Made by a program: the position numbers and the translations under genes. From Bacillota bacterium (GTDB taxonomy: Bacteria; Bacillota; Dethiobacteria; DTU022; UBA8154), in contig JAAYOY010000090.1 in the NCBI GenBank assembly GCA_012520035.1, positions 1 to 57,396 of the forward strand: a stretch of DNA of 57,396 bases, given 5' to 3'. Shown piece after piece: positions 4,175 through 44,332 of the stretch. The number at the start of each line of letters is the position of its first letter. Positions within the stretch are counted from its first letter, which is position 1. Under the pieces are notes generated by a model that worked only from the letters and a program-made list of their open reading frames with translations, did no database searches and had not been told where the DNA came from.

Positions 4175-6220
4175 TTAAGAAGCCGGCTCTACCCGAACTA
4201 GAATGGCTTTAAAGTCGGGATAACCGGTAATCGGCTCCCTGGTTTCGACATTTGTTATTTCATTCACGTTCGCCAAACCCCAACCATGAGGGACCGTTAC
4301 TACGCCTGTCATCATGTTTTCATTGGTCTTAAGACGCATCTTTACGGTTCCTACTTTTGTTGAGATATTTACTTTTTCGCCATCAACCAGTCCATAGCGC
4401 TGTGCGGTAGCGGGATGCATCTCGGCCAGAGGCTCCGGGTTTAAAGCGCGCAGTGCTGGTATATTACGCTGCTGAGAATGAGCATACTCCTCTTGCCTGG
4501 CTCCACTGATCAGAATAATAGGATATTCTTTATAAAGCTCGGGAGTGCTGATAGGACTCTGGGCAGGCTCCACATATCCCGGCAGAGGATCATAGCCATA
4601 CTCTTTTAATGTGTCTGAGTAGATCTCAATCTTTTTGCTCGGCGTGGGGAACGGTTTTGTTTTATACTGGTAATAACCCTTTTCTGCAAAGTAAACCCCA
4701 AGCTTATTTTTTAGTTCCTCTTTAATTCCGCTCGGCTCCAGCAAGAAGTCAAAGACTTCTTCATCAGAAGTCCAGGTGAAATATTCTCCCAAACCCATAC
4801 GCTTTGCCAGTTCGGTCCAGATCCACCAGTCAGGCCTGCTCTCACCCAGCGGCTCAATAACCTTTTTACGCAGCATGGCATAAGGCTCGCAATTTACAAC
4901 GCCGTAAACATAGCCAAGGCTATCTTTTTCAAGGAAAGTACATGCAGGCAGCAACACATCAGACAGCTCCGCCGTCTCATTGATAAACGGATCAATGGAT
5001 ACCCTGAAGTCTAAAGCTTCAAAAGCTTTCCTGTAGAGGCCGGAATCGGGGTAAGTTACCAAAGGATTGGCTGCCGTTACGATACTGGCTTTCATCGGAT
5101 AAGGAATTCCTTCCAACACCGCTTTGGGGAACAATGTAGCAATACCGTAAGGAGACACGCGACCCCAAACCGAATGGAAAATCGGGTACTCATCCGCACC
5201 GATGGGCTTTTCTTCCATAGGCAACCGCAAATCTGCCATGCGGAGAAATGGAATGGTTACCCAGGTTCCGGGTTTATCAATAGCGCCCACTACTATTTGC
5301 AACAGCGCTAAAAGCCTTGAATTCTGGAAGCCGTTCCGGTGCTGGTCAAGCGTATTAATACCCTGCAGGATACAGGGTGCCTTGGACTGGGCAAAAATTC
5401 TGGCCACAACCTTGATATCCTCTTTGGGAATACCGGTAATATCGGCCGCCCATTCAGGAGTATACTGCTGGATATGTTCTTTCAACTCGGGGAACCCTTT
5501 GGTGTAATTTTCTACGAATTCTTTATCACAACGGTCTTCATTGATAATAACATTCAGCATCGCCAGAGCAAGAGCTGCATCAGTACCGGGACGTATCTGT
5601 AAATGGAGACCCAGTTTAGCAAGCTCGGTTCTCTTGGGGTCAATAACAATGAGCTCAAACTTTTCATTGGCCACCTTTTCCCGGATCAGATCTCCTAACA
5701 TTTTCCTTGAGCCGTCCGGGTTGTGACCCCAAAGAATCATACACTCCGCCTGGCGATAATCCTCACCTACATAACGCCCAAATGTCAACTGGCGTGCGAG
5801 GATCCGCAGCCGGTAACAAATGTTTTCCACGGAAAGCAGGTTGGGAGTATTATAAGCACTCTTAAAGCGCTGGGCAAAAGCGGCTACTTCAATATTTTCA
5901 ACGCCGACCGAACCGCAAAAGATAGCCAGTGACTTTGCTCCGTATTTTTCTTTTACTTTGGTCAGGTTCTCCGCGCAAATATCAAATGCCTGGTCCCAAG
6001 TAATCCTCTCCAGGGTATTATTTTTCCTGCGATAAGGATAGAGCAGGCGGCTATCGGAGTATACGTAAGCCGGAAGGTTTTCTCCCCTCGGGCAAACGTA
6101 ACCATTGCTAACCGGGTGCTCTGGTAACCCTTCAGTTTTTACCAATTTACCATCCTCAACATGCGCTTTAATACCGCAATCCCACACACATAACATGCAA
6201 CTACTATTGACAACTGCCAT
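4175..6220 (-). CDS. Molybdopterin (bis-MGD) oxidoreductase, MopB/DMSO-reductase superfamily, cytoplasmic (no Tat or signal peptide)
   Basis: 681 aa. N-terminal CMLC-x3-C...VCPRG (Cx2Cx3Cx27C) FeS motif and a C-terminal MGD-binding beta-barrel region (...VTVPHGWG...). AGGAGG RBS. No adjacent FeS or membrane subunit genes. Confidence 0.85.
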   Translation of the reverse strand: MAVVNSSCMLCVWDCGIKAHVEDGKLVKTEGLPEHPVSNGYVCPRGENLPAYVYSDSRLLYPYRRKNNTLERITWDQAFDICAENLTKVKEKYGAKSLAIFCGSVGVENIEVAAFAQRFKSAYNTPNLLSVENICYRLRILARQLTFGRYVGEDYRQAECMILWGHNPDGSRKMLGDLIREKVANEKFELIVIDPKRTELAKLGLHLQIRPGTDAALALAMLNVIINEDRCDKEFVENYTKGFPELKEHIQQYTPEWAADITGIPKEDIKVVARIFAQSKAPCILQGINTLDQHRNGFQNSRLLALLQIVVGAIDKPGTWVTIPFLRMADLRLPMEEKPIGADEYPIFHSVWGRVSPYGIATLFPKAVLEGIPYPMKASIVTAANPLVTYPDSGLYRKAFEALDFRVSIDPFINETAELSDVLLPACTFLEKDSLGYVYGVVNCEPYAMLRKKVIEPLGESRPDWWIWTELAKRMGLGEYFTWTSDEEVFDFLLEPSGIKEELKNKLGVYFAEKGYYQYKTKPFPTPSKKIEIYSDTLKEYGYDPLPGYVEPAQSPISTPELYKEYPIILISGARQEEYAHSQQRNIPALRALNPEPLAEMHPATAQRYGLVDGEKVNISTKVGTVKMRLKTNENMMTGVVTVPHGWGLANVNEITNVETREPITGYPDFKAILVRVEPAS

Positions 6221-6390
6221 TAAACTAAACCTCCTAACATGAACATTGCTTGAATAAAAATTAACATATACTTTATAATTTTTTTAACGTTTATTTTTCT
6301 TACGTGAACCTTTGCTGTAAATACAACGTTTCGAGTATAACAAAAATACCCTCAAATCAAATAAGTATCATTTTGTCTAACAATTGATAT

Positions 6391-6416
6391 ATTCTACTAT
6401 TAAATTCTACTATTAA
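6391..6416. repeat. Perfect tandem duplication of the 13-mer ATTCTACTATTAA in a 620-bp AT-rich intergenic region
   Basis: Read directly: attctactattaa repeated at 6391-6403 and 6404-6416, about 170 bp upstream of the Mo-oxidoreductase start. Confidence 0.8.
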
Positions 6417-6840
6417 AGAAAAGGCACCACATGATAAAAGCAGATAAAATTGATCAACAGTATTTAAAGGCTCTGTAAAAGAAACAGAGATCTCTCACCT
6501 CCTTTATCCTTTTATCCAGTATCCAGGAATAATATCCTTATAATCCTAAAATTACCTTCCAAATCCCCCTTTCTTACTGCTCTTACATATTATTGATTAT
6601 ATTACATTATAAAACATTCCTCCCAACCGTTTGATTGGCTATATTATATCATAGATAGAAAATTAAATCTACACCCATGCTTTTACAGATAATGCAACAT
6701 CACGGCCACAAGCAGACAAGATAAGATCTTCTGTCTTCACGGGATTTTTGTTATTCATGTAACCTTCTAATTTTATGAATCATTAATACTATTTTTTATT
6801 ATAACCGCTCATCCCTCACACGTAAATAAAAAATAAAATT

Positions 6841-7581
6841 TTATGTATTCGGTTCAACGCTATTCCTGTCCATTAACTTTTTAAAAAAAGGATTGACCAG
6901 TTCCTGGTATTCAGCAGGTGTCATTGTTTCTTCGGAAATTTTCTGCATTGTCTCAAAGGATATTAATCCGTTTGAGGCAAACTCTTCTCCCGCTTTTTTA
7001 ACAAGTTCATATTTTTCAAGATAAGCGTCACGCATAAAACCCAGAGCGCTTGCAGGCACAAGAATCTCCCCCCCTGCAGCCCAGGCGAAACTATTGCATA
7101 TTATCCTGAAATGATTGCTGATTTGATCAAAATTATCCCTCTCGGAAAAACCACAGGTAGAAACAAGCAAGGCTGTTTGCTCACGGGGCTTAAACCTCTT
7201 GTGGCGGCAATGTCCCTCCTCATCGCTTATTATGAAGGGATCAAACATGGAAAAGCACCTATCCAAAACTGCTTTTACCGGAGCACTAAAACCGTATACA
7301 TAAACAGGACTGGCCAGGATTATTACATCTGCATCTTCAATCTCCTGCTTAAGAAATTGCATATCATCTTTAACAGCACACTTTCCGGGAGTTTTAAACC
7401 AGCAAGACATACAGGCTGTACAATAATTAATATTCATTTTATGCGGATAGAATATTTTCAAATCTGCTGGGTTAATCCCCTCAAGTAATAGGTTTAAGAT
7501 CTTTTCAGTAAATGATTTTTTATTTGGAAAGCCGGATCTCGGCGAACCGCTTATGGCTACTACTTTTTTGGAAAAAGTCAT
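6841..7581 (-). CDS. Iron-sulfur flavoprotein (Isf)-like NADPH-dependent FMN reductase / flavodoxin-fold protein
   Basis: VVAISGSPR flavodoxin-like N-terminus and a compact CTACMSCWFKTPGKC (Cx2Cx2Cx7C) motif typical of ISF-family proteins. Start moved to the ATG at 7581 (MTFSKK), 9 nt from AAGGGA. Confidence 0.7.
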   Translation of the reverse strand: MTFSKKVVAISGSPRSGFPNKKSFTEKILNLLLEGINPADLKIFYPHKMNINYCTACMSCWFKTPGKCAVKDDMQFLKQEIEDADVIILASPVYVYGFSAPVKAVLDRCFSMFDPFIISDEEGHCRHKRFKPREQTALLVSTCGFSERDNFDQISNHFRIICNSFAWAAGGEILVPASALGFMRDAYLEKYELVKKAGEEFASNGLISFETMQKISEETMTPAEYQELVNPFFKKLMDRNSVEPNT

Positions 7582-7644
7582 AAGAAACATTCCCTTGCGA
7601 TGAAATTTTTCATTTAATACTATAACTTCTCTAAAAAGACCCTT

Positions 7645-7762
7645 TTTCCTGCCAAAATAAATATTAAACTTAATTATTAATATTCAAAACAATAATACCC
7701 AAATTAGATAATTTTAACTCTTAAAACCTCTTATTTAAGTCGAATATTTTGGGCAGGAAATA
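7645..7762 (+). repeat. Repeat copy 1: ~95-bp AT-rich element (7670-7762) plus a 15-nt inverted partner (7645-7659 vs 7745-7760)
   Basis: 7670-7762 aligns by eye at roughly 88-90% identity with 14561-14657 in the same orientation. TTTCCTGCCAAAATA at 7645 is the inverted complement of TATTTTGGGCAGGAAA at 7745. The core holds the palindrome AAATTA-GA-TAATTT (7701-7714). Confidence 0.85.
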
Positions 7763-7885
7763 TATAAGGGGCATTCAACACCCCCGGGCTACTTAAATTT
7801 TCTCCTGGCTATAAAAACGCTATGACCGGGAGCAGGGACCAGCCCTGGCTCCCACAGTAATCCAATGTTTCTAAATGGCTGCATA

Positions 7886-8330
7886 TTATACTTTTGCTGT
7901 AATATTAGTAACCAGGTATAAATGGATATTAATCCGGGCTTTTATTGGTGTCCACAAAGTATCTGGACGAAACTGATCTACGCCCACACTTTCCCGGTGT
8001 CCGAAATTTGAAGCCCACCAAGAGGAGTTTGTTCCGCCACTCACTATTACTATGTTAAGTGCCGGTACGCGGTGAGCTAGCTCGGTTCCCTGCAGCCGTT
8101 ATCAAAAACAAACTTCAGCACAGGTACCCTATGATCGCTCGGGAGGGTAAGCCAGTATACATAAGGTTGTTCTCCTGCACGGGCTCTATCGAGATAAGAA
8201 GGGTAAGCCATAAAAAACTCTGACTGGTTAATATTGCAATTTTGGGTTAGCCACTGCATAAACTCTTGCCTAGTTGGAAATATACTAAGACCCGAAGGAA
8301 TATAAATATATTTAATCTCTTCCAGAGATT
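7886..8330 (-). pseudogene. Frameshifted gene fragment of unknown function
   Basis: Two minus-strand frames read ...SLEEIKYIYIPSGLSIFPTRQEFMQWL...PYVYWLTLPSDHRVPVLKFVFDNG...* then ...HRVPALNIVIVSGGTNSSWWASNFGHRESVGVDQFRPDTLWTP...*. No start codon and no family recognised. Confidence 0.3.
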
Positions 8331-8343
8331 TACTTTTTTATGA

Positions 8344-8985
8344 TCAAAGATCACAGGGATCTGATTCAAGGATATCTTCGATATCTTTTTCATTTTCTTC
8401 AATGATTCCTTTTTCTTCATTGATTCCTTTTTCTTCATTGATTCCTTTTTCATTTTCTTTTTTGTGAGCTTCTTGTAAAGCTGAGTAAGTAGCCTGGATT
8501 ACTTTGTAACAAGACTCAGTTGCTCCCGTAATAATATCAACATCATATGTGTTCTTCTCCACTATGTTGGATTCGAGAGTAATAAAAACTTCCCTAAGTA
8601 AAATATCTTCACCATCTTGTATGGGAATTTTATAAGTATCAGGATCTTTTGCCTTATTATCTCCGTGGTATTCTACAATAGAAGCTTTTATGATATTATT
8701 ATCAACGATCTCAATAGTGACCTCAGAGTATCCTTTTCCTTCAACTTTCTTAGAAACACCTGTATATACGCCATCTTGATATTCCTGTGCTTCAATCGGC
8801 TCCATTACAGGAGGAGAAGCTTCTTCTGTACCCCCCCTGCTTTGCCCTTCATCTGCTACCGTAATTTCTTCTTCTGCAATATCCGCAATTTCCACATCTT
8901 CTTGTGCTGCTGAGCAGCCATAAATCATAAATAACAAACATCCAGTTAATAGAATTATAAAACTCCTTTTTATTTTCATTTTCAT
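8344..8985 (-). CDS. FMN-binding-domain lipoprotein (extracytoplasmic), with flavinylation-type D-x-x-T-G-A-T motif
   Basis: MKMKIKRSFIILLTGCLLFMIYGCSAA is a signal peptide plus lipobox (IYGC). YQDGVYTG...DVDIITGATES resembles the FMN_bind domain (NqrC/RnfG/PplA type). AGGAGG RBS before the ATG at 8985. Acidic C-terminal tail with EKGINE repeats. Confidence 0.75.
   Translation of the reverse strand: MKMKIKRSFIILLTGCLLFMIYGCSAAQEDVEIADIAEEEITVADEGQSRGGTEEASPPVMEPIEAQEYQDGVYTGVSKKVEGKGYSEVTIEIVDNNIIKASIVEYHGDNKAKDPDTYKIPIQDGEDILLREVFITLESNIVEKNTYDVDIITGATESCYKVIQATYSALQEAHKKENEKGINEEKGINEEKGIIEENEKDIEDILESDPCDL
8395..8448. repeat. 3 x 18-bp in-frame tandem repeat (encodes EKGINE x3) in the lipoprotein tail
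   Basis: ttcttcaatgattccttt / ttcttcattgattccttt / ttcttcattgattccttt, read directly. Confidence 0.9.
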
Positions 8986-9127
8986 CCTATTCAACCTCCT
9001 ATCTCTGTTCTTGAAGAATATCATTTAATATCTCCGTTATTCTTACGTTATTCTTAGATTTACGAAAGTTTGTAACCTCGGGTTTAAATCTTCTTTTAAG
9101 CATAAAAATCTTCTGCAGCAACGGAGG

Positions 9128-9855: not shown

Positions 9856-11796
9856 TCAGCCGCAACCCGGGTCCCCCGGATCCCCAGCATCATCTATCAG
9901 CCTCGTTTCATGAGACGACCACGTGTAACAATGATCAAAATATGACCAACCGGTTACTGTTTTACCTTCTCCACCGGCTACAACAAAATGAAGAGTTTTC
10001 GGTGAAATTAGAATAGGAACTTTTCCTCCGGGCTGAAGAGATTCTTGCCACATTGGTAGATAATCAGGAGGAATCTGGTCTGCTAAGATTCCCTTTCCTT
10101 CTAAACTCTGTTGAATTCTTGCTTTTATATTTGCAATTTCTTCTGTGGATAGTTCCTCAAAGGGTATCCTGGTTTCTTCAAAGATATATTTTCGGAGGCT
10201 TTCCTGAGTATAGCCTAAGGCTTTGAAATCCTCAGCCATTTCTGGGGTAATCATAAATATATATTTGGGAGGATGTGCCGCTGGGCTGGCTATATCGGGG
10301 TTATACCCTGCAATTACTGTAGAGCGCTTACTACGTATCGAGTCAATAATCTTCTCCAAAGTAAGCTGAGCTGTCAAATGCTGGCCCGATTCCTCATATA
10401 ACGCCGTGTTCGTATAGTTTACAGGCATATTTCCTGAAATTGTGGAAACGGTTATACAGCTTTCTTCCGCATCAAAGCCGTAAGTCACATGATAGGGCTC
10501 CCAGGGGCTGCTTGAAAAATCCTCGGCAAACGTAAAAAAGGTAAATGGATACACCCTGCTACGTGCCATATCATTGATACCCGGCCACATGTGGCCAAAA
10601 TTAATCAAACACAACCTGATAGCACGGCCTATGGTAGAATTGGCTCTGTTTCCATAGGTCCATATACGGTCTTTCGAGTTCATATTGAGTTTTTCTCCCA
10701 TAGGTCCGCTCACCCAAATTGCAAGCTGAAAACCACCTAACGAGCCCTGTGGATGAATAAGATCATAGTCTTCTAATGTACCCCAGCCCGAAACAGCCTC
10801 CATTGCCGCGATAATTACCGGCAAGTACTCTGGCTTGGCACCTGCCATTACGGCATTAATTGCAATTTTTTCTACAGTGGCTTCCCCATTTTTTATAGGA
10901 ACTTTACCTATTACTTCATCCGGGGGACGAGTTGTACCTGTAAGCATCAAATCAACAGCTTCTCTTGTAGGGGGGATTAAAGCCAATCCATCTCCCCAAT
11001 GGTTCTTATCAAATATCTCCTGGAATTCCTGGATCGCATGCTCGTAACAGCAGGAGGTAATCGTGATTGGTGGAAGATCAACTTTTTCTAACTGGGGTGG
11101 GTCTTCCTCATCTGGCGTTAAGGGGCGAACGAGAGCATCAATAATATCGTTAAAATGGGATTCGGCAATAGGCCTCGACTCCTCCGAGGGTATATACCAA
11201 TAATAACCCTTCAATATTACCCTACGCAACATGGTCATTCCGTTATCGTAAGACCCTGATTCTACATCATGTTCGAATCCTCTGGCTACTAGTAAAACAC
11301 TGGGTACGCCTAATTTTTCCAACTTAATTATACCGGCAGAACTCTGCCAGGTGCAGGTCCCTCAATCACCCACACCGTATATAACGGTATCGACTTCTTT
11401 CGCTATCTGAGCTGCCATCTGATCGCCAATATCAAAAGCACCAACGTATCGTTTTACAGTGGTGGTAGGATAATATTTGTTGATCAATTCTTCAATCACA
11501 TCAAGAAATGCGGTAAACCCCTCTTTTCCATTATCATATAGCCCAATTGTCTTGCCATCCAAATCCGAAACACGCGGAGAAAGTGGCATATTTGGGGGCG
11601 GGTCAATTACACCCCTGGGATTCAGCGCCTCTAAGACCACCCCCTCACCGTGGTAGCGTCCCTGTCCATGAATATCAATAGGTTGCCCGGTTTGACCTGT
11701 ATGTTCGGGCGTTGCTGCTAGTGAAATAGAAGAGATTAATAAAACAAATAACAAACAACTAGTAACAAATAAATATCTTTTCATAATTATCAACAT
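9856..11796 (-). CDS. Predicted secreted or anchored selenoprotein A: signal peptide + GrdB/UGSC-like U-x-x-C module + uncharacterised ~450-aa domain (in-frame TGA at 11364..11362 read as Sec)
   Basis: ORFs 11362..11931 and 9856..11322 share a frame (offset 609 nt). Only TGA plus 13 sense codons separate them: ...DTVIYGVGD-U-GTCTWQSSAGIIKLEKLGVPSVLLVARGFEH.... Hairpin lies 9 nt downstream. Start chosen at ATG 11796 (MLIIMKRYLFVTSCLLFVLLISSISLA/ATPEH), 6 nt after AGGTGG. Paralog of 12210..14105, which has TGA at the equivalent position. Confidence 0.75.
11332..11352 (-). promoter_or_regulatory. SECIS-like hairpin downstream of the TGA in selenoprotein A
   Basis: ACC(U)GGCAG-AGUU-CUGCCGGU: 5-bp upper stem, bulged U, 3-bp lower stem. 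The apical loop is about 18-21 nt after the UGA, a geometry comparable to bacterial SECIS elements. Confidence 0.5.
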
Positions 11797-12209
11797 TATC
11801 AACCACCTTTCTCTTAATTTGTTAATATCCTTTTCATTCTTAGAATTACGAAGAACCTCGGCAATAACTCGCAGTATTGCCCAAGCGGGTGTGGAGCTTA
11901 TGGGGACAAGCTGGTGGATTGCCTGGTTCAACTTGATAAAACGGTTTGATAATCCCTAATCTGTTGCTAAAAATTTACAAAAAGCTGCCCGCTCTCCTTA
12001 CCGGTTGCTTTAAGCTGTGAATTGAATGATTCTGTAAACCTGGCTATGGCCTTAAGTATCCTAATTATCCGAACTGTCCAGTAGGAACAGTTAAAGTCCT
12101 ATATTGGGAAGGCAGGAATTGATAAATACCCCTTCCCGCCTTCACCATAGACTATTCAGAATCTAACATATGCACACTTCAATCCCTACCAGGGATTTTT
12201 ATTTTATCC

Positions 12210-14105
12210 TCAAGTGCTGCAGTCATCGTCCGAGGGAGGTTCAGGCTCACTAGGTTTAGAGGGAGGTTTAGGCTCACTAGGTTTAATTGGAACAGCGCCA
12301 GGAACAGGATTAATAAACGGATCATCTTTGCCAGGTTCAGCGGGTTTATATGTTTTATTAGGCATAAATTGATCTATCGATATACTACGTACATATGGCA
12401 TATCATAAACCTGACAAAAAGCATTTGTTTCCCCGCCTACTACTACTGTCTCAATCCCCCGGCCATAAAGCCAAGGCTGTATTAGCTCATCTTCCGGTAG
12501 TCTTAACCACGTTGCGTACGGTTCAATCCCGTTTTGGGCATCTCGCATAACAAAAGTCCGTACATAGTCAGTTGCCCAGTAGTCTTTGACAGTCCACTTA
12601 ATATTTTCTTTCAGCCATTCGGCAAGCTCTTCTGGAGTTTCAAAGCCTTCCCTATAGGTTTTCCAGGCCGCTGTTGGATCCATTACAAAAGTAGCTTTAG
12701 GAGTACTTGGAGGGAAAGCCTTCATTAAGATAAGCGCCTCTTCATGAAGTGGCCTGTAAGTAATGGCACCCATACAATCGATCTTAGACCAGCCAGTACC
12801 AAAGAGGCTTACAACGCTTTCGTCCTCCTTGAAGCCCTTACGGACATGAAAAGGTTTCCACGGGCTCCTTTCCTCATTCTCTGCAAAGACGATATTGCTA
12901 AAATTTAAGGGGTTGCCTACGGAACCACAATACCTTTCCGGCCAAGGCTGATATCCCCCACAATTTCTGGCAATGAACCCCCACGCTCTACCTATGGTAG
13001 AATTGGCTTCATTATATGGGCCCAACGCACCAACTTCATAATTCATGCCTATCGCCTTTCGTATTGGTCCGTTAACAACCGCCATTCCTGCCATAGAACT
13101 TGTAGAGGTAGACAAAGGAGGCGTTTCCGATGCAGCTAATGCCAAAATTACCGGGAAATATTCCGGTTTAGCTCCTGCCATTACTGCATTGACTGCAACC
13201 TGCTCCACTGTATAACTCCAAAACATCTTACCCACAACTTCATCAGGACTACGATTGGTTCCTGCAAGCATCTCAGCCACTTTATCTTCCGTTGGAAGCA
13301 CAATCGGCAATCCATCAGTCCATCCATTTTTATTAAATAATTGCCGCAGGTTATCCTCGGTATCTGGTTCTAACAACCTTACCCTTTTTGTTTCCGAAAT
13401 GCCTGTCTTCGTCTCCACTACGGATAAAGGTTTAGTGAGCGCATCAATAATCTCCTGCATTACAGGCTTGCCGGTTGTTGGATCTTTGCCGTTAACATAT
13501 TGTTTAAGTACGGTAGATGGTTCGCCCGCGAGTGGATGGGGAACAAATACCATACGCTGGAGTGGTTGCCCTTCTCGAGCGACATCGTACTTCAGATATT
13601 CAGCAAATTTTTCAGTGTGAATAGACACCGCAGGTATCCCTAGTTTTTCTATTGACCTAGCATGCCTCGCACACGACGGGGCACAACTACTTCAATGTCC
13701 ATAGGTTACTATCACTGCATCGCCGCCATTGTTTTTTATCTCCTGCCATAGCTCTGGATCATCCTGTCCATATGACCCACTTTTTTCCTTGATTATTGTT
13801 GTCACAGACGGCATGTTTTCAGCAAACCAAGCCTGTATATGCTCTAAAAACAAAACCCCTGACGGTTTCCCGAAACCCTGATCTACTAAGTATACAGTTT
13901 TACCTTCTAGGGTATCAAGCCTAGGTGCCATGGGTATTAGCTCTACAGGAGGAGGTTGGCCCAAAGGATTGAGGACGGTAATTAATTTTGCATCCTCTTT
14001 TTGCGCGTGTTCGGGGAGGGGCGAAGTTGCCAGTGCAATAGAAGAAATTAATAAAACAAATAAAAAAACAAATAAACAACTGATAGTAAATAAATATCTT
14101 TTCAT
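12210..14105 (-). CDS. Predicted secreted or anchored selenoprotein B (paralog of A; in-frame TGA at 13694..13692 read as Sec)
   Basis: ORFs 13692..14114 and 12210..13628 share a frame (offset 486 nt). Read-through gives ...GGDAVIVTYGH-U-SSCAPSCARHARSIEKLGIPAVSIHTEKF.... N-terminus is MKRYLFTISCLFVFLFVLLISSIALA/TSPLPEH. Blocks shared with A: NGWTDGLP.V.PT, AVNAVMAGAKPEY.PVI, ANSTIGRA, SPW.P.HV..GF. Pro-rich tail ends ...DDDCST. Confidence 0.75.
12232..12285. repeat. 2 x 27-bp in-frame tandem repeat (KPSEPKPPS/KPSEPEPPS) in the selenoprotein B tail
   Basis: gagggaggttcaggctcactaggttta / gagggaggtttaggctcactaggttta, 26/27 identical. Confidence 0.9.
13662..13684 (-). promoter_or_regulatory. Possible SECIS-like hairpin downstream of the TGA in selenoprotein B
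   Basis: GUGCC-C-CGU-CGUGU-GCG-A-GGCAU starts 8 nt after the UGA. An interrupted stem, less canonical than in A. Confidence 0.35.
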
Positions 14106-14560
14106 AATTATCAACCCCTTTTCAAATTTGTAACTTTTGAATTTGCCTTAAATTACTTTTGCCTTAGTCTAAAACAATCCTTAAAAACTTCCACTAACAA
14201 CATCCTCTGATAATTAAGTCATTTTACCTGTCGTCTTTAATCCACCCCCTTTTATTTATTAAAAGGAAACCTACGTATAGGATATTAGGGAGGCTAGAAA
14301 TTAAGGGCTTATTAGTGGTTTGATCTACGATAGGACACCACCTAAAAATTTATAGCAAATTGTATTCCAAATTTAAAATTGTTTATATATTTAAAGGAAA
14401 GCTAAATTAGACTATTTTTACCGGTTTATTGTTTTATGAAATAATTAATATTGATAATTTTTAGGAAAGGGGACAAATCTGATAGTATAAAGGAGATAGG
14501 AAAGTAGTAAAACTTTATAGTTAGAACAGGTTGATAGATTAAAGCGCTATTACCATTTAT

Positions 14561-31131: not shown

Positions 31132-31932
31132 CTATCTATGGAATGGTTTTTTCTTCTTGGACAACTGTTCCAGCAGATAAGGGTTAAGCACTTTAATATA
31201 GGTGCCCTTCATACCAAGCGAACGCGATTCAATTACGCCTGCACTTTCAAACTTGCGTAAGGCATTGACAATAACTGATCTTGTTATTCCCAACTGGTCC
31301 GCAATCTTACTGGCAACGAGGAGCCCTTCATCACTGTCCAGCTCTTCAAAGATATGCTCAACCGCTTCCAACTCAGAATAAGAAAGCGTTCCGATTGCCA
31401 GCTGAACAACAGCTTTATTTCTGGCCTCTTCTTCAATTTTTTCAGCTCTTGAGCGCAAAATTTCCATACCGACTACTGTAGCCCCTGTTTCAGCCAGGAT
31501 TAAGTCTTCCGCATTAAAGGTTTCGGCAAAACGGGCCAAGAGTAAAGTCCCCAATCTTTTCCCTCCACCCATAATGGGCACGACCGTGACAATCTTGTTT
31601 GTAAAGAGACAGTTTTCCGTCTCTACAAAAACACAATCGTTTGTCTTCTGATGCAGATTTACTCTTGTTTCATCATCACGCAACAAAAAATTGTTATAAC
31701 GTTCCGGGAAAAACCCTGTTTTAAGAACCCGTGAGACCATTATTTCACATTCGAACTCATCTACCAATGCATAACCCAGTATTTTCCCTTCGCGATCAAC
31801 AAGATATGAATTGGCATGGATGACATTTTTTAATACTTCCGCTACTTCCGAGAAATCTACCCTTTGACCGGCAGTTTTCTGGAGAATTTTGTTGATACGG
31901 CGTGTCTTCTCTAGCAATGGAGAAGTAATCAA
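31132..31932 (-). CDS. codY: GTP/BCAA-sensing global transcriptional regulator CodY
   Basis: ...[13 protein letters not shown]... GAF domain, C-terminal wHTH ...[26 protein letters not shown]. Start uncertain: TTG 31932 is 5 nt after AGAGGTGA, while the ORF track gives GTG 31941. Confidence 0.9.
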
Positions 31933-32007
31933 TACTATCACCTCTTTAAGTTGTTATTAAATGGGGAAAAGCAGATATACCAGTCTATCAAAATAGCTTT
32001 TCTGAAA

Positions 32008-33435
32008 TTATAAAATATATCTACTTAAATCTTTATTTTTAACAATATTTTTTAATTTATTCCTTACATATGCTCTATCTATAACAATTTTTTCTCCTTT
32101 TAAATCTGCTCCTTCGTAAGAAATATCTTCCAGCAATTTTTCCATGATGGTATGCAGGCGTCTTGCACCGATATTCTCCAAATCATCATTCAGAATGGAT
32201 GCAATATCAGCAATCTCCTCTACACCATCAGGTGAAAACATGACTATCACCCCCTCTGTCTCCAGCAAGGCTGAATATTGCTTGAGCAAGGCATTTTCAG
32301 GATCGGTTAAAATTTTTTTCAAGTCCTCTTTGGAGAGGCTTTGCAATTCAACCCTTATGGGAAATCTTCCCTGCAGTTCCGGAATAAGGTCTGAAGGTTT
32401 GGTAAAATGAAATGCTCCTGCCGCGATAAAAAGCATGTAATCAGTTTTAACCGGTCCGTATTTTGTCATCACGGTAGAACCTTCAACAATCGGAAGGATA
32501 TCCCGCTGTACTCCCTCCCTGGATACATAATGTCCAGCATGAGAAGTATCACTACCTGCGATCTTATCTATCTCATCTAAAAACACAATTCCCATCTGTT
32601 CGGCCCTTTCTATCGCCTCACTGATAACTTCATCCATATCAATGAGTTTTTCGCCTTCTTCCTGCTGCAAAATCCTCCTCGCCTGTTTCAAAGATACCCT
32701 TTTCTTTTTTTTCTTTGACGGGAACAGATTCCCAAACATATCCTGGATATTTGTGCTCATTTCTTCCATGCCCAGACCTGAAAAAACTTCAAACATAGGA
32801 GTAGAGCGATCTTCTACATCGATTTCAACAATATAATCCTCAAATTCGCCCCTTTTAAGCCTTTGCAATTTAATTTTTCGTTCTTCCACGGCCCGGGTAA
32901 TACCCTCACCATAATTATCTTGTTCATTTTTTAAGGAAAGATTTTTGTATTCCTCGGCAGTATGAAACAACAGGTTTAACGGGTTGGTTCCGGCTTTGGG
33001 CTTAACAGGCAAAGGAGCAATTAAATCCAGCAGCCTCGCTTCCGCCATTTCAGCTGCCTTAACCTCTACAATCTTCATTTTTTCAGACTTTACAATTCTA
33101 ATCGAGGTTTCGACGAGATCTCTTATAATGGAATCCACATCACGGCCAACATAACCGACTTCAGTGAATTTAGTGGCTTCAACCTTAATAAACGGGGCAT
33201 TAACCAAACGCGCTATTCTTCGAGCAATTTCAGTTTTGCCCACCCCGGTTGGGCCAATCATGATAATGTTCTTCGGTATCACTTCGTCTTTTATATTATC
33301 TTTTAATTTTTTCCTCCTGTATCTGTTGCGCAGTGCTATCGCTACACACTTTTTTGCCTCTTCTTGCCCGATTATATACTTATCCAGTTCCTGGACTATT
33401 CTTTTCGGTGTGAGTTCGGCTTCATAATCCACCAT
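32008..33435 (-). CDS. hslU: ATP-dependent protease ATPase subunit HslU
   Basis: [22 protein letters not shown]...[16 protein letters not shown] (Walker A)...[10 protein letters not shown] (Walker B). Confidence 0.95.
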
Positions 33436-33519
33436 TAATCTGCAATAACACCTCCAGGGATTTAAAAAACAAGGATTCTAAAAAAAAACAAATATTTCAT
33501 TTTATTAGCAATCTGTTGA

Positions 33520-34050
33520 TTAAATTTCTTCAATCGAGATATGATCGTTTGTGTAAACACAAATCTCAGCAGCTATTAAAAGAGACCTGCGTACTATTTC
33601 CCCTACAGGAAGTTCTGTATTTCTAAGAAGAGCCCTTGCCGCAGCTAGAGCAAAAGCCCCGCCCGAACCGATAGCAGCAACTCCGTCATCAGGCTCAATC
33701 ACTTCACCTGTGCCTGAAATAAGAAGCAGTCCATCTTTTGCCGCTACGATGAGCAAGGCTTCTAATTTCCTTAAATAACGATCCGTTCGCCATTCCTTTG
33801 CCAATTCCACAGCGGCCCGACGCAAGTTTCCATGATAGTTTTCCAACTGTTTTTCAAACTTCTCAAAAAGGGTAAGGGCATCCGCCACCGAACCGGCAAA
33901 ACCTCCGATAACCGTGTTGTTATATAGCTTTCTCACCTTCCGGGCCTGATGTTTGATAGCAATATTTCCGGAGATTGTTACCTGCCCATCTCCAGCGATA
34001 GCGACTCTCTCACCCTTTTTTACAGCTATAATTGTTGTAGCATGAAACAA
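33520..34050 (-). CDS. hslV: ATP-dependent protease subunit HslV
   Basis: [24 protein letters not shown]... Start likely TTG 34050, giving M-FHATT with catalytic Thr (GGGG RBS 10 nt upstream). The ORF track extends to 34077. Confidence 0.9.
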
Positions 34051-34105
34051 TACAATTTTTCCCCTTTTAATTTCCAAAAAACAGAAAATCTTTTTATAAT
34101 TACAA

Positions 34106-35002
34106 TTATGCCCTTGGATGCGCCCGCATATAAGTCCTTTTCAACTCTTCCTTGGTTATATGCGTATAGATCTGGGTTGTTGAGACAGAAACATGACCCA
34201 GTAATTCCTGAACAACCCTCAGATCAGCCCCCGCATTCAAAAGATGGCTGGCAAAAGAATGCCGCAAAACGTGAGGCGACAAATTACAACTGCTGCTTAT
34301 TTCCAACCCATACTTATGCACCAGCCGCCTTATACCTCTTACCGACAACCTTTGTCCAAACCTGTTTAAAAACAATGCCGCGTTCTCATCTTTTACTTGA
34401 TTACATCTTTCCAGAAAAGGACGGCTTTTAGTCAAATATACAGCGAGCGCCTGTAGAGCATAAGAACCGAGAGGCAGTATTCTTTCCTTGGAGCCTTTAC
34501 CCTTTACTTTTAGATATCCATTTTCCGCATCAATTGAAGACACATCCAAACCCGCCAATTCGCCAACTCTAATACCTGTCCCATAAAGAACCTCTAAAAT
34601 AGCCTTATCCCGGAGGCCTGTATACGAAGTCCTCTCCGGTTTTTCCAACAAATCCAGCGCCTCATCTGCATAAAGAAACTTAGGAAGCTTCTTTTCTTTT
34701 TTGGGAATAGAAACAAGCTCCCAAGTATTGTTTTCTAAAAAACCCTGTATTTTTAAAAACCTCAGGAATGATCTGGTAGATGATATTTTCCTGGCAATAG
34801 TGCTGCGAGCATATTTCTGCTCTTTTAGAAGGGCTAGATATTCACGCATGGTTAAATGGCTTACTTTTTTCAGGGCAGATATATCGTTACCTAGAAATTC
34901 TAAAAACCTTCTGATATCCTTTTCATAGCTTTTCAGGGTCAATGGGGCAGAATTTTTCTCAATTTTCAAGGATTCTACAAAATCCTTTAAATATGTGTTC
35001 AT
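34106..35002 (-). CDS. xerC: Tyrosine recombinase XerC
   Basis: 298 aa. SAM-like N-domain, R...HxLRHSFA...LGH...Y catalytic motif. Conserved hslVU-xerC-trmFO-topA synteny. Confidence 0.9.
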
Positions 35003-35042
35003 AACTTAGTCCTTCTATTTAATATTAGCATATTCAAATTGT

Positions 35043-36362
35043 TTATGCAAGCTGCTTATGGAATTTTTTTCGAAATCTCGACAAAATCTCTATACTGCGT
35101 TCAGCAAGTAACTGCTTTCTTTTTTGTTTCGAAGTTTTTACTGATAACCCGGGCAAAAGTCCATAATTTACATTCATCGGTTGAAAATTATGCGGATCTG
35201 CAGTTGTAATATATTTTGTTAGTCCTCCTATAGACGTTTCTTCGGGAAAAATGAGCATCTTATCCCCGTTCAAACGGCAAAAGGCATTAATACCCGCAAC
35301 CAACCCGGTGGCTGCTGATTCAACATACCCTTCCACTCCGGTTATCTGCCCGGCAAAGAAGATCCCCCGGCAATCTTTCATCTCTAAAGTCGGATGAAGT
35401 AGAAGCGGAGAATTAATAAAAATATTCCTGTGCATCACACCGTAGCGAACAAACTCTGCGTTTTCCAGTCCAGGTATCAAGGAAAAAATTCGTTTTTGTT
35501 CCGGCCATTTTAAGCGTGTTTGAAAACCTACCATATTGTAAAGCGTTCCTTCCCTGTTGTCTCTCCTCAACTGGACTACAGCATATGGCTGTTCACCTGA
35601 AGACGGCAGTGAGATGCCTACCGGTTTTAACGGTCCAAATCTTAAAGTATCCTTTCCTCTTTTTGCCAAAACCTCGATAGGCATGCACCCTTCAAAAAAG
35701 ATCTCTTTTTCAAATTCCTTCCTCTCAGCCACCTCTCCCTTGATCAGCTCGTCCCAAAACAACTCATATTCTTCCTTGTTCAGCGGACAGTTTAGATAGT
35801 CTTCCCCGCCCTTGTTGTAACGCGAAGAAAAAAAAGCCTTTTCCATATTAATAGACTCGTAAGTTAGAATGGGAGCAGCAGCATCAAAAAAATACAGCTT
35901 CCCCAATCCGGTTAATCTATCCAGGGCAGATGCCAGATCGGGTGAGGTGAGGGGCCCCGTAGCAATAATTACAGGCCTACTCTCCGGCAATTCTTTTAGC
36001 TCTTCATAAAATATATCGACCAGCGGATGATTCTGTAAAGTCCAGGTCACAAGACGGGCAAATTCTTCCCTGTCTACCGCCAGAGCACCGCCTGCAGGAA
36101 TGCGTGTCTCCAGGGCACACTTTATTATCAGCGAATCGAGCAAACGCATCTCTTCTTTAAGCAGCCCAACCGCATTATTTACTGAAATTGCCCGCAGAGA
36201 ATTGCTGCAAACCAGTTCTGCAAAATAAGCCCCATGATGTGCAGGTGTCATTTTCTTTGGCCTCATTTCAAAAAGCGACACCCTTACACCCCTCTTTGCC
36301 AGCTGCCAGACCGCCTCAGAACCGGCCAACCCGGCTCCAATTACTATTACTCTATCTGAGAT
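35043..36362 (-). CDS. trmFO: Methylenetetrahydrofolate--tRNA-(uracil54-C5)-methyltransferase TrmFO (Gid)
   Basis: ...[39 protein letters not shown]...ELVCSNSLR... The ORF-track TTG start at 36329 cuts the GxGxxG motif. The frame is open upstream to 36365 but has no ATG/GTG/TTG, so ATC at 36362 (8 nt after AGGAGG) is my best guess. Confidence 0.85.
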
Positions 36363-36419
36363 AAGACATTCCTCCTAAATAATTCCCATCTAAAAGTTAT
36401 AAATGGACAACCTGCTTTT

Positions 36420-38507
36420 TTATTGATTATCCAGCCTTTTTTCTTGATAGTCACATTCCCTGTTTGAACAGCGATATACCGTATGAGGTCCTTTATGTTT
36501 TTTTTCTATTAAAAGATAACCGCACTGAGGGCATTTTTTATCCAGAGGTTTACTCCACGATACAAACTTACACTCCGGATAATTACTGCAACCATAAAAT
36601 AATCTCCCTTTTCTGCTTCTGCGCTCAATTATATTCCCGTTACATTGAGGGCATTTTACCCCTGTTTCTTTTTTATGTTGCATAGTATACCTGCATTCAG
36701 GGAAACCGGGGCATGCCAGAAACGGCCCATAGCGACCATGTTTTTTTACAAGTTTTTTTCCACAATGCGGGCATATTTCATCAGTTTCTTCATCCTGAAT
36801 TTCTACTTTTTTCATCTCGTTCTTCGCTACCTGTAAGCGGCCTTTAAAAGGAATATAAAATTCGTTTAAAACCTTTAAACGCGACTCTTCCCCCGATTCG
36901 ACTTTGTCAAGTTTATCTTCAAGCTGCGCTGTAAAATCCTCATCAATTATCTCGGGGAAATATTTTTTTAGTAATTCTACTATAATAAAACCCAGTTCAG
37001 TTGGCTTTAATGTCTTATTCTCCTTTATTACATAACCTCTGCTCTGGATAGTATCAATAGTAGGAGAATAAGTGCTGGGCCTTCCTATTCCCTTGTTTTC
37101 CAGAGTTTTGACCAGAGATGCTTCAGTAAACCTGGGTGGAGGCTGGGTAAAATGCTGTTCCGGCGATATAGTTACCGGCTCCAGCTTTTGCCCCTCTTTC
37201 AGCTGTGGAAGCTGTTTTTCCTTTTCTTTTTCCTCATCCTCCCCTTCAATATAAAGCACCATAAATCCTGGAAATTTAATGCTGGATCCGTTAGCTCTAA
37301 AAAGATAATCTCCGGCATCAATATCAACCCTTACCTGCTCAATAGTAGCAGATTCCATCTGACTGGCCAGAAACCGATCCCAGATTAATTTATAAAGCCG
37401 ATATTGATCTCTTTTCAAATATTTTTTAATTGTATCCGGATCTCTGGTAATTGACGTAGGCCGGATAGCCTCATGCGCCTCCTGCGCACCTTTCTTCGCA
37501 GTAAATTTCCTGGGTTTATCCGGCAAAAAGTTTGGACCGTATTTTTCATGTATATATTTTCCGGCCTCTTCCTGAGCAAGAGGAGAAACCGTAACAGCGT
37601 CTGTTCTAATATAAGTTATTAAACCAACAGCTTCTCCTTTTTGACCGATTGGCAATCCCTCATAAAGCTGCTGAGCAAGCATCATTGTTTTTTTTGTGGT
37701 GAAACCGAGCTTGCGTGAAGCTTCTTGCTGCAGAGTACTTGTTGAAAACGGCGGTGCAGGATTCCTTTTTCTTTCCTGTACTTGAATTTTAGTCACTTGA
37801 TAGTTAACGTCCTCAAGCGCGGATAATATTTTATTTACCTCTTCTTCACTTTTTAAATCTATCTTTTCGCCGTCTTTACCGTAAAATTTTGCATTAAAGG
37901 TATTTTTCCCATTCAATTCCTTAAATACGCCTTCAATTGACCAGTATTCTTCCGGAATAAAAGAATCTATTTCTTTTTCACGATCGCATATCATCCGGAC
38001 AGCCACAGACTGTACCCTTCCTGCACTAAGGCCTTTGCGCACATTTTCCCAAAGTAAAGGGCTGATCAGGTAACCTACAAGTCTGTCCAGAATACGCCTG
38101 GCCTGCTGAGCTTCGATTCTATGACGATCTATGGGTCGCGGTTTTGCAAAAGCATTTTTAACAGCATTTTTCGTGATCTCATGAAATTCAACCCGGCAAG
38201 GATAATCCTCCCTAATTCCAAGGGAATTACATAAATGCCAGCTTATTGCTTCCCCCTCCCTGTCGGGATCAGTTGCCAAAAAAACCTTTGCCGCTTTTTT
38301 ACTTGCTTCTTTTAATTCATTTAATATCTTTCCTTTACCCCTGATTGTTATATACCTGGGATTAAAATCATTTTCTATATCGATTCCGAGGCGGCTTTTC
38401 GGCAAGTCTACCAGGTGGCCGATGGAAGCTTTAACCATATATTTACTTCCCAAAAATTTACTTATAGTCCGTGCTTTTGCTGGAGATTCTACAATAACAA
38501 GATTCAT
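36420..38507 (-). CDS. topA: DNA topoisomerase I (type IA) with C-terminal Zn-ribbon repeats
   Basis: MNLVIVESPAKARTISKFLG... TOPRIM, ...active-site region..., three CxxC...CxxC zinc fingers at the C-terminus. Confidence 0.95.
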   Translation of the reverse strand: MNLVIVESPAKARTISKFLGSKYMVKASIGHLVDLPKSRLGIDIENDFNPRYITIRGKGKILNELKEASKKAAKVFLATDPDREGEAISWHLCNSLGIREDYPCRVEFHEITKNAVKNAFAKPRPIDRHRIEAQQARRILDRLVGYLISPLLWENVRKGLSAGRVQSVAVRMICDREKEIDSFIPEEYWSIEGVFKELNGKNTFNAKFYGKDGEKIDLKSEEEVNKILSALEDVNYQVTKIQVQERKRNPAPPFSTSTLQQEASRKLGFTTKKTMMLAQQLYEGLPIGQKGEAVGLITYIRTDAVTVSPLAQEEAGKYIHEKYGPNFLPDKPRKFTAKKGAQEAHEAIRPTSITRDPDTIKKYLKRDQYRLYKLIWDRFLASQMESATIEQVRVDIDAGDYLFRANGSSIKFPGFMVLYIEGEDEEKEKEKQLPQLKEGQKLEPVTISPEQHFTQPPPRFTEASLVKTLENKGIGRPSTYSPTIDTIQSRGYVIKENKTLKPTELGFIIVELLKKYFPEIIDEDFTAQLEDKLDKVESGEESRLKVLNEFYIPFKGRLQVAKNEMKKVEIQDEETDEICPHCGKKLVKKHGRYGPFLACPGFPECRYTMQHKKETGVKCPQCNGNIIERRSRKGRLFYGCSNYPECKFVSWSKPLDKKCPQCGYLLIEKKHKGPHTVYRCSNRECDYQEKRLDNQ

Positions 38508-38522
38508 TTCAGCACCTCCATC

Positions 38523-39650
38523 TTAATTCCTTACAAAATATTTCCCCGGCAGCTGCTTAATTATTCCTTTTAATTCCAAATTGAGCAATACAGTATTTAC
38601 TGTAGAAATAGGCATTTTGCTCATCCTCACGATATCCTCCAGGATAAGGGGCTCATAGGATATTACTTCTATCAATTTGATTTCATCCACACTGAACTCT
38701 CCCTGATCATCCGCCTCTCCAAAGGTTTTTGCCTGAGAAATAACGGCTTCATTTTCCGGGAAAGATTGTAATTCCTCCAAAATATCTTCGACCTTTTCTA
38801 CAAGCTTCGCCCCCTCTTTAATAAGTTTATGGCAACCCTTGCTGTAAGGGCTCTTAATCCCGCCCGGTACCGCAAATACTTCCCGGCCCTGTTCCAGGGC
38901 AAAATCAGTTGTAATAAGAGCGCCACTTCTTTCCCCTGCTTCTATAACTATTGTTCCCGCCGAAAGCCCGCTTATAATTCTATTTCTCCGGGGGAAATTT
39001 TGGGGGAAAGGTTCAATGCCAGGGGGAAACTCACTGATTACTGCTCCTGATTTAGATATCTTTTCCATTAGCGTTCTGTTCTCGGGAGGGTAGCAGATGT
39101 CCAGACCACAGCCCAGAACCGCTATAGTATTCCCTCCGGCATCAAGAGCACCTTTGTGGGCCCATGTGTCAATGCCCCTCGCCATACCGCTGACAACTGT
39201 TATATTATATTGTGCTAAATCCGCAGCAAATTTGTAGGCAACATCCTTTCCATAGGCCGTATGGCGGCGGCTTCCCACAATCGCCAGGCATGGAGCGGCC
39301 GAAACATGAATATCCCCCATATAATATAATAGAGGCGGAGCATCATATATTTCTTTTAAAAGGCAGGGGTAATCATCTTCATCCCAAATTACATATGAAT
39401 AACCTTTTTGTTCAAATTCCCCCCATGCTCTATCCAGGTTTATACCGCCGTGTTCCCTAGCAACCTTTTCAGCCAGGGGTTTGCCAATTCCTTTTACTTC
39501 GGCCAATGCCTCAATATTTTTTGCTGCTTCCCATGCCTGTTCTATAGAGCCAAAGTGACGGATTAACCTTTTTATCCTTACTGGGCCAAGCAATGGCATC
39601 AAATTAAATGCATGATAATATCTGGCCTTATAAACTTTTTCATCCAGCAA
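38523..39650 (-). CDS. dprA: DNA-processing protein DprA (Smf)
   Basis: ...AIVGSRRHTAYG...VVSGMARGIDTWAHKGALDAGG.TIAVLGCG Rossmann-like DprA core, C-terminal wHTH. TTG start with a GGAGG RBS. Confidence 0.9.
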   Translation of the reverse strand: MLDEKVYKARYYHAFNLMPLLGPVRIKRLIRHFGSIEQAWEAAKNIEALAEVKGIGKPLAEKVAREHGGINLDRAWGEFEQKGYSYVIWDEDDYPCLLKEIYDAPPLLYYMGDIHVSAAPCLAIVGSRRHTAYGKDVAYKFAADLAQYNITVVSGMARGIDTWAHKGALDAGGNTIAVLGCGLDICYPPENRTLMEKISKSGAVISEFPPGIEPFPQNFPRRNRIISGLSAGTIVIEAGERSGALITTDFALEQGREVFAVPGGIKSPYSKGCHKLIKEGAKLVEKVEDILEELQSFPENEAVISQAKTFGEADDQGEFSVDEIKLIEVISYEPLILEDIVRMSKMPISTVNTVLLNLELKGIIKQLPGKYFVRN

Positions 39651-44107: not shown

Positions 44108-44332
44108 ATACTAAACCTGCCTTTTAAATAATAAAACCTTCCTGGCGGGCAGGAAGGCACACTACTTCCATTCATTACACACGTACCTACTGTCCCGGTC
44201 CTTTATTCGGCTCCAGGCAGAAAAATATCCGGTTGTAAACTTTAATTAACCTTAATTAACCCTGGCAACAATGGTGCAGGCACTGTGTTCCCGCCCAAAA
44301 AATATTTTAACACTTAATTAGTACAAATACAA
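44108..44332 (-). promoter_or_regulatory. Candidate promoter plus ~190-nt structured leader with terminator hairpin upstream of the pan operon
   Basis: Minus strand TTGTAT (44332..44327), 17 nt, TAAAAT (44309..44304). Leader ends with CCUUCCUG-CCCGC-CAGGAAGG plus UUUUAUUAUUU (44157..44126), about 19 nt before the GTG. The 5' GGGCGGGAA can pair with UUCCUGCCC of the terminator. Confidence 0.45.

Follow-up and report, generated by a model that had tools for sequence, protein, structure and literature searches.

We report that two open reading frames (ORFs) on the minus strand of a 57,396-nucleotide contig of a Bacillota bacterium (GenBank assembly GCA_012520035.1, contig JAAYOY010000090.1; the whole stretch is referred to as the window) are, with a probability that we put at about 0.88, a single gene, designated B. 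It would encode a secreted protein with selenocysteine (Sec, U) at an in-frame TGA, a member of the already known UGSC family. An initial annotation, made from the sequence without database searches, had proposed a "selenoprotein B" at this site; a Sec protein with a UGSC domain is indeed what the data support, but the name can serve as a label only, the protein being neither GrdB nor PrdB. B was spotted correctly and is mis-annotated in public data; it is an exported long form within a known family, and the selenoprotein call as such is not new. The finding overturns nothing; it adds a well-supported exported member and testable leads to a selenoprotein family that ranks among the most abundant in the environment and has no known function.

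One gene across an in-frame TGA

ORFs 13692..14114 and 12210..13628 share one frame on the minus strand and, as the initial annotation had stated, are separated by a single TGA (13692-13694) and exactly 21 sense codons (13629-13691), followed by the GTG at 13628. Translated through the TGA, the product reads ...GGDAVIVTYGH-U-SSCAPSCARHARSIEKLGIPAVSIHTEKF.... With the probable start at ATG 14105 (AAGGGG lies 5' of it), gene B occupies 12210..14105 of the minus strand and ends with the TGA at 12210-12212; its 631 codons comprise 137 amino acids (aa), Sec at position 138 and 493 further aa.

The continuity of the gene is evident from its homologues. A search of a collection of 5.8 billion proteins returned more than 6665 of them, most being single proteins of 550-600 residues that are collinear with B through the TGA; NCBI and UniRef call some of them "UGSC family (seleno)protein". 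In the full-length homologues the TGA column is occupied by Cys (GH-C-STCAP). The database entry that matches the window exactly (P0001, 100% identity, from an independent public contig) consists of the 472-residue downstream ORF only, so public gene calls truncate B. The nearest relatives, P0002 and P0016 (58-60% identity), are likewise truncated, and contigs of the nearest relatives have an in-frame TGA at the same site (MAIGH*SSCSPAV twice, IGMGH*SQCAPAV).

For the orthologue survey, 185,579 species genomes were scanned with an alignment of the post-TGA parts, and the region upstream was translated in frame at each of the 80 loci obtained. The loci belong to Acidobacteriota, Chloroflexota, Thermodesulfobacteriota/"Deltaproteobacteria", Alpha- and Gammaproteobacteria, Verrucomicrobiia, Latescibacterota and others. 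The column holds TGA in 72/80 loci, TGC or TGT (Cys) in 5/80 and Leu or Met in 3/80, with a TGA also found at the column in two loci (L001 and L002) in addition to the 72; since relatives of B are preferred by the survey ranking, 72/80 is a biased estimate of the Sec:Cys ratio in the family as a whole. This distribution is the classical Sec/Cys signature, and it supports the prediction of a selenoprotein. It also agrees with the earlier expectation that orthologues carry Sec or Cys at the column; the three Leu/Met loci are divergent copies with the centre lost in both paralogues. At least two copies are present in tandem in 30/83 loci.

The window contains a second gene of this kind. Paralogue A (9856..11784, minus strand, 642 codons) has the same architecture as B, the motif GVGD-U-GTC and its Sec codon at 11362-11364. 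BLASTP aligns A and B with 33% identity over 469 residues (E 7e-57) and puts both TGAs in the same column, which agrees with the earlier claim that they are homologous. Both proteins match the Pfam family PF24696 (UGSC), B with 79.6 bits (E 3.9e-22) and A with 96.8 bits (E 2e-27) against a cut-off of 25. Once the Sec codon is recognised, A and B regain their true product, which is mis-called publicly as a 140-aa fragment and a 472-aa protein, and the same mis-calling is mended in the dozens of orthologues found.

It could be argued that B is a pseudogene with a nonsense mutation, or two genes, the first of about 140 aa and the second an independent 472-aa gene starting from the GTG at 13628. 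Gene callers do split the locus in this way, and the hairpin of B considered below is not significant alone. However, the stretch of 21 codons that separates the TGA from the GTG codes for the conserved segment S-x-C-A-P...E-K-L-G-I-P, the resolving Cys included, and the same TGA is present in paralogue A and in orthologous loci across phyla; the Cys homologues, moreover, are single proteins. Because the TGA recurs in the paralogue and in 72 orthologues and the codons from it to the GTG start are conserved, we believe that this explanation is very unlikely.

The same reasoning applies to an alternative code (UGA read as Trp or Gly genome-wide) and to a sequencing or assembly error at a true TGC or TGT codon. 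Nothing specific speaks for either, apart from the existence of Cys forms of the family. A six-frame scan of the whole 57-kb window found two long in-frame TGAs only, those of A and B, and they share one column of one family; considering that both genes also terminate at TGA, this triplet is not a general sense codon here. An error would have had to arise identically in two paralogues, and the independent public contig with the identical truncated ORF is consistent with the same TGA. We regard both possibilities as hardly credible, and the reading of B as a single gene with a Sec codon is retained below.

An A-type orthologue with 50% identity, in locus L020, also has TGA at the same column. 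A-type genes adjoin B-type genes in four loci: L020 (269-4757), L024 (3904-7473), L036 (5701-9288) and L067 (3511-7275). In L020 both copies have the TGA; in L024, L036 and L067 Sec/Cys is lost in both types (D-N/S-G in the A-type, Q-L-D-T-C or H-M-D-T-L in the B-type), and this joint loss suggests that the two types cooperate. A is an anciently diverged second paralogue and probably works together with B.

The 5' ends of the two genes deserve a separate remark. The DNA at 14020-14119 (B) and 11699-11798 (A), both on the minus strand and covering about -14 to +85, is near-identical; it spans the ribosome-binding region and the signal peptide, whereas identity between the mature proteins is as low as 33%. 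Such a pattern suggests gene conversion or a strong shared constraint.

At the other end of B, 13 nt past its stop codon, there is a perfect 7-bp hairpin AATCCCT-ACC-AGGGATT (12181-12197). Its T-run is on the plus strand only, so that the element may terminate transcription in the opposite direction or act bidirectionally. The scan for promoters and terminators gave nothing informative.

The hairpin after the UGA codon

The initial annotation had noted an interrupted hairpin shortly after the UGA of B, and its location proved right: the first nucleotide of the hairpin is the 8th past the UGA, and the minimum-energy fold (-19.4 kcal/mol) includes it. This fold (13651..13696, minus strand) resembles a selenocysteine insertion sequence (SECIS) and is a 46-nt interrupted stem, the lower part of which takes in the UGA. 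The apical part (13662-13684), GUGCC-C-CGU[CGUGU]GCG-A-GGCAU, has -9.4 kcal/mol, a spacing of 16 nt and the loop CGUGU, with G at position 2 followed by U.

These values were compared with the published rules for bacterial SECIS (the bSECISearch consensus, taken from PMC13188914): a loop of 3-9 nt, a G among the first two nucleotides of the loop, a spacing of 16-37 nt, a stem of at least 4 bp and a minimum free energy of -7.5 kcal/mol or lower. The corresponding hairpin of A, CUGGCAG[AGUU]CUGCCGG (11333..11350, minus strand; 7 bp, 18 nt after the UGA, -11.3 kcal/mol), passes all of them, and its AGUU loop is common to 13 orthologues. The hairpins of A and B are like the bacterial SECIS of the E. 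coli fdhF type in being stem-loops in the coding region just after the UGA, with a small loop whose second and third nucleotides are G and U, placed 16-18 nt from the UGA. B differs from fdhF in that its apical helix is interrupted after 3 bp, and there is no primary sequence similarity.

At the family level the evidence is good. The rules are passed by 67/77 Sec forms, by 1/8 Cys forms (a small sample, n=8) and by 105/385 (27%) codon-order shuffles. Nearly all Sec forms have a hairpin with a loop of 4-5 nt about 16-22 nt after the UGA; the loops are of the xGUx type, most often GGUC, then AGUU, GUC and CGUGA. The central helix (columns 18-23 with 28-33) shows pairing and covariation above all 500 column shuffles and above slid registers, as counted in an ungapped alignment of 75 post-UGA sequences. 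Compensatory double-synonymous changes are seen, for example, CCG ACG...GUC GGG versus CCU ACG...GUA GGG versus CCC ACG...GUG GGG. Cys forms that share this peptide (CSTCAPAVAVHC) spell it with different synonymous codons and fold more weakly (mean -6 versus -12.4 kcal/mol). The conservation and covariation of the hairpin that the initial annotation had called for are, therefore, found across the Sec forms, the G-U loop hairpin being largely missing from the Cys forms; what does not follow is the strength of B's own hairpin, which is compatible with SECIS function and not compelling.

Several points weigh against our reading of B. Its apical helix consists of 3 bp, a C.A mismatch and 5 bp, so that the upper stem falls outside the 4-16 bp rule if four contiguous pairs are demanded and satisfies it if one mismatch is allowed. 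Against dinucleotide shuffles (z -1.29) and synonymous-codon shuffles (p 0.17-0.28) the hairpin does not stand out. RNAalifold gave no consensus structure for the 75 post-UGA segments because the registers of the lower stem differ between subfamilies, and explicit pair counts and rule-based scoring were used for this reason. No Rfam SECIS model matched, either in the whole window at the gathering threshold or around both TGAs at E<=10. The 57-kb window contains no selA, selB, selC or selD (no tRNA, and none among the scanned ORFs), so that the capacity of the source organism to decode Sec is presumed. The score of B against the NCBIfam model NF041046 is 70.5 bits, under the curated cut-off of 125 bits. 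The predicted signal peptide (14028..14105, minus strand; MKRYLFTISCLFVFLFVLLISSIALA/TSP) is judged from eye and hydrophobicity only. Finally, the catalytic proposal made below is drawn from analogy, since the C-terminal domain has no recognisable relative.

The weakness of B's helix admits a milder alternative, namely, that Sec is inserted and the noted hairpin is not the element recruiting SelB or is a weak one, another or an extended structure being used, or B being decoded less efficiently than A. In favour of this, the strict requirement of at least 4 contiguous pairs, which B fails, is passed by A and by the 67/77 orthologues; the shuffling results point the same way, and so does a minimum-energy structure longer than the apical hairpin, with the UGA inside it. 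On the other hand, the loop, spacing, position and energy of the apical hairpin fit the published model; a near-identical loop, CGUGA, is present in two orthologues (L050 and L061); and in the next 60 nt no other hairpin was seen that has a small loop containing G. We consider this alternative improbable and continue to treat the post-UGA hairpin as the likely SECIS of B.

Protein architecture, known relatives and a possible mechanism

The N-terminus of B, first noted as a signal peptide, looks like one of the Sec type, and orthologues have N-termini of the Sec or Tat type. The UGSC domain (residues 44-204, the PF24696 match; 13494..13976, minus strand) is predicted, from the AlphaFold2 (AF2) model of the homologue P0003, to have a flavodoxin-like alpha/beta fold with U138-S-S-C141; U138 and C141 are located where a beta-strand ends and a helix starts. 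Of the motif U-x-x-C-x-x-x-C given in the initial annotation, U/C-x-x-C is conserved in homologues and the second Cys (C145) is not. P0003 is a Cys homologue 50% identical to B, modelled with a predicted local distance difference test (pLDDT) score of 89 and a predicted template modelling (pTM) score of 0.88. Its best local Foldseek matches are flavodoxin-like or Rossmann-like alpha/beta proteins (probability 0.97-0.99, but E about 5e-3), and no thioredoxin-fold protein is among the top 50. The model thus speaks weakly for a flavodoxin-like fold and against the thioredoxin fold that had been proposed in 2008.

The conserved C-terminal domain (residues about 232-585, some 350 residues; 12351..13412, minus strand) has invariant residues that are polar (D, E, N, R, H, W) and no conserved Cys. 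No sequence relative was found in Pfam (E<=5, 16 members searched), NCBIfam or PDB (sequence and profile). The AF2 model of B's own domain is of good quality (pLDDT 85.8, pTM 0.86), and Foldseek matched neither this model nor that of P0003 to any PDB entry with E<1e-3. Two candidates from the structural search were rejected: class I fumarate hydratase (E 4e-3, TM 0.22) is not meaningful, and "Toblerone-fold" hydrolases were judged noise. The domain has 3963 relatives among 50%-identity representatives (E<=1e-3). It also occurs stand-alone, in forms of about 350-370 aa (for example, P0255/P0159), and in proteins of about 715 aa (P0165/P0172/P0193/P0201), in both cases without any Pfam domain. 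The 1226-aa protein P0232 combines UGSC, the C-terminal domain and Cu_amine_oxidN1 only; a Cu_amine_oxidN1-like domain is of the kind found in secreted proteins of Firmicutes.

B ends with a Pro-rich, lineage-specific tail of 46 residues (12213..12350, minus strand; ...PSDDDCST), which has no counterpart in orthologues ending in ...SIDKWR. The tail of A (9859-9895, minus strand) ends in ...GDPGDPGCG, and in both tails a Cys is found 2-4 residues before the end. These tails could be mobile redox arms or an anchoring feature.

The family itself has been known since about 2005-2008. A "UGSC-containing protein" was reported in 2007 as a selenoprotein of unknown function (PMC1976440). In a 2008 study (PMC2398784), UGSC is counted among the most abundant selenoprotein families of the Global Ocean Sampling (255 Sec and 21 Cys forms), and a fusion to an unknown domain ("UGSC/Unknown_1"), possibly the C-terminal domain of B, is noted. 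A 2026 review lists the family as still uncharacterised, under NF041046 (PMC13188914), and a literature search for the phrase "UGSC family" returned no paper. B agrees with the family as defined by Zhang & Gladyshev, NF041046 and PF24696 in having U/C-x-x-C with Sec or Cys at the same column, and in that Sec forms outnumber Cys forms among close relatives. It differs in architecture: the classical protein is a single domain of about 150 aa, whereas B has 631 aa with a signal peptide, an extra domain of about 350 aa and the Pro-rich tail. The tetrapeptide also varies, being USSC in B and UGTC in A instead of UGSC. A, like B, scores below the 125-bit equivalog cut-off of NF041046 (70.7 bits); the model is matched by 57/58 long-form homologues, with a best E of only 1.3e-22. 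Judging from these scores, the long forms are a distinct branch of the UGSC family.

A likeness to GrdB, GrdF and PrdB (TIGR01917, TIGR01918, TIGR04483) should be mentioned. The similarity covers about 47 residues around Sec: a beta-strand, U-x-x-C, a helix and ...E-K-x-G-I-P-x-V. B matches four models of the GrdB/PrdB type locally (residues 116-165, E 5e-4 to 3e-2), with 13-20 bits against cut-offs of 65-800; for the three models named, 19.7, 16.1 and 14.4 bits stand against 300, 602 and 65. The PrdB model is matched by 7/58 homologues. The Sec region is C-terminal in GrdB and N-terminal in B; GrdB and PrdB are cytoplasmic, whereas B has a signal peptide, and no GrdA, GrdE or PrdA partners are near B. 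An assignment of B to GrdB or PrdB was rejected, the similarity being local and far under the cut-offs; we treat it as a lead for remote homology or convergence, not as membership. As an analogue for B, the selenol nucleophile and resolving thiol of GrdB/PrdB are plausible.

Bacterial selenoproteins outside the cytoplasm have precedents in DsbA-like, DsbG-like and thiol:disulfide interchange selenoproteins and in the Tat-exported FdnG, and UxxC/CxxU redox motifs are common among exported thiol-disulfide selenoproteins (PMC2398784). B differs from the DsbA/DsbG-like proteins and FdnG in fold and architecture, its Sec domain being fused to a large non-redox domain. In a monoderm Bacillota cell the signal peptide would make B a truly extracytoplasmic selenoprotein.

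The following mechanism may be proposed. UGA138 would be recoded to Sec by SelB and tRNA-Sec, aided by the stem-loop starting at the UGA. U138 and C141 would then form a redox-active selenol/thiol pair where strand meets helix in the UGSC module. If UxxC selenoproteins and GrdB/PrdB are a guide, the selenolate would attack a substrate or a partner bound to the C-terminal domain, which most likely binds the substrate, and C141 would resolve the adduct to a selenenylsulfide. An external reductant would regenerate the centre; in cytoplasmic relatives it could be the neighbouring thioredoxin-reductase-like flavoprotein, and for the exported B it may be a downstream-encoded lipoprotein with a flavin mononucleotide (FMN)-binding domain.

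It is tempting to extend this to the long forms in general, and we do so tentatively, considering the whole picture more likely wrong than right. The long-form UGSC proteins would be a widespread uncharacterised selenoenzyme class (about 4000 50%-identity clusters with the C-terminal domain), in which a GrdB/PrdB-like U-x-x-C on a flavodoxin-like module is joined to a catalytic domain and A and B are paired as subunits. A cytoplasmic version, recycled by a thioredoxin-reductase-like protein, would exist beside a version exported by Sec or Tat, with a partner of about 190 aa or an FMN-binding lipoprotein. The pair in the window would be an extracytoplasmic two-subunit selenoenzyme of a monoderm, the terminal-Cys tails serving as mobile redox arms.

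The leads on UGSC function are, in our opinion, the conserved C-terminal domain, the A/B pairing and the neighbours (the thioredoxin-reductase-like protein, the secreted partner, a rhodanese and the FMN-binding lipoprotein). The more interesting part is the C-terminal domain without a solved structural relative, the correlated Sec/Cys loss in A and B, and the existence of exported and cytoplasmic versions.

Neighbouring genes and other observations

On the minus strand B is followed by A, then by genes for an FMN-binding-domain lipoprotein (8344..9024; PF04205, E 3.9e-5; an N-terminal lipobox-like motif ...IYGC), an FMN-reductase/flavodoxin-like protein with Cys motifs (6841-7590) and a molybdopterin oxidoreductase (4175-6220). 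The genes at 4175-9024 may together form a redox module associated with A and B, with the lipoprotein as a possible extracytoplasmic redox partner. The other flank contains AMP-dependent ligases and genes resembling indolepyruvate:ferredoxin oxidoreductase and 2-hydroxyacyl-CoA dehydratase.

The orthologues differ in their export signals. Many have a Sec-type N-terminus, and the copies from Chloroflexota and Alphaproteobacteria have no signal peptide. Acidobacteriota copies carry twin-arginine signals (MNRRKLLSLLGxSPALLAG; L006, L009, L013-L015, L021, L022, L039 and L042, with further loci L046, L048-L050, L053, L057, L059, L061 and L062); judging from these N-termini, the selenoproteins of Acidobacteriota would leave the cell folded via Tat, unlike the Sec-type copies of the window.

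The neighbours of the long UGSC genes vary in a related manner. A thioredoxin-reductase-like flavoprotein (Pyr_redox_2, CATC motif) adjoins the gene in 13 loci, all without a signal peptide (L008, L017, L020, L023, L025, L030, L035, L038, L045, L051, L054, L058 and L063), and is a candidate for the dedicated reductase of the cytoplasmic forms. A conserved secreted protein of about 190 residues with no Pfam match is encoded directly downstream in 18 loci, mostly of exported forms (for example, L001:7262-7810, L002:1953-2510, L033:2363-2938, L040:3040-3618 and L043:7417-7992). A secreted rhodanese is found next to the gene in 7 loci. A tblastn search of the window detected no homologue of the 190-residue protein, the thioredoxin-reductase-like protein or the rhodanese.

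Betaproteobacterial Cys forms lie between TctC/Bug-type solute-binding proteins and an aldo-keto reductase (L083:4891-9742; L085:4899-11305; L016:1532-2632). This pattern, which is not seen for most Sec forms, hints at the catabolism of small carboxylates. The aldo-keto reductase was dismissed as a general neighbour, since it accompanies only the betaproteobacterial Cys forms and L001.

Farther along the window, the minus strand at 31132-39650 carries dprA, topA, trmFO (GIDA), two short genes and hslU; the order resembles what we take to be the Bacillus arrangement smf-topA-gid-codV-clpQ-clpY-codY, and this would fit an anaerobic Bacillota source, the G+C being 43%. A pan motif (RF01749) at 44186-44297 (minus strand), with 43.8 bits against a gathering threshold of 36.2, lies upstream of the ORFs at 42396-44107 and is the sole Rfam match in the window.

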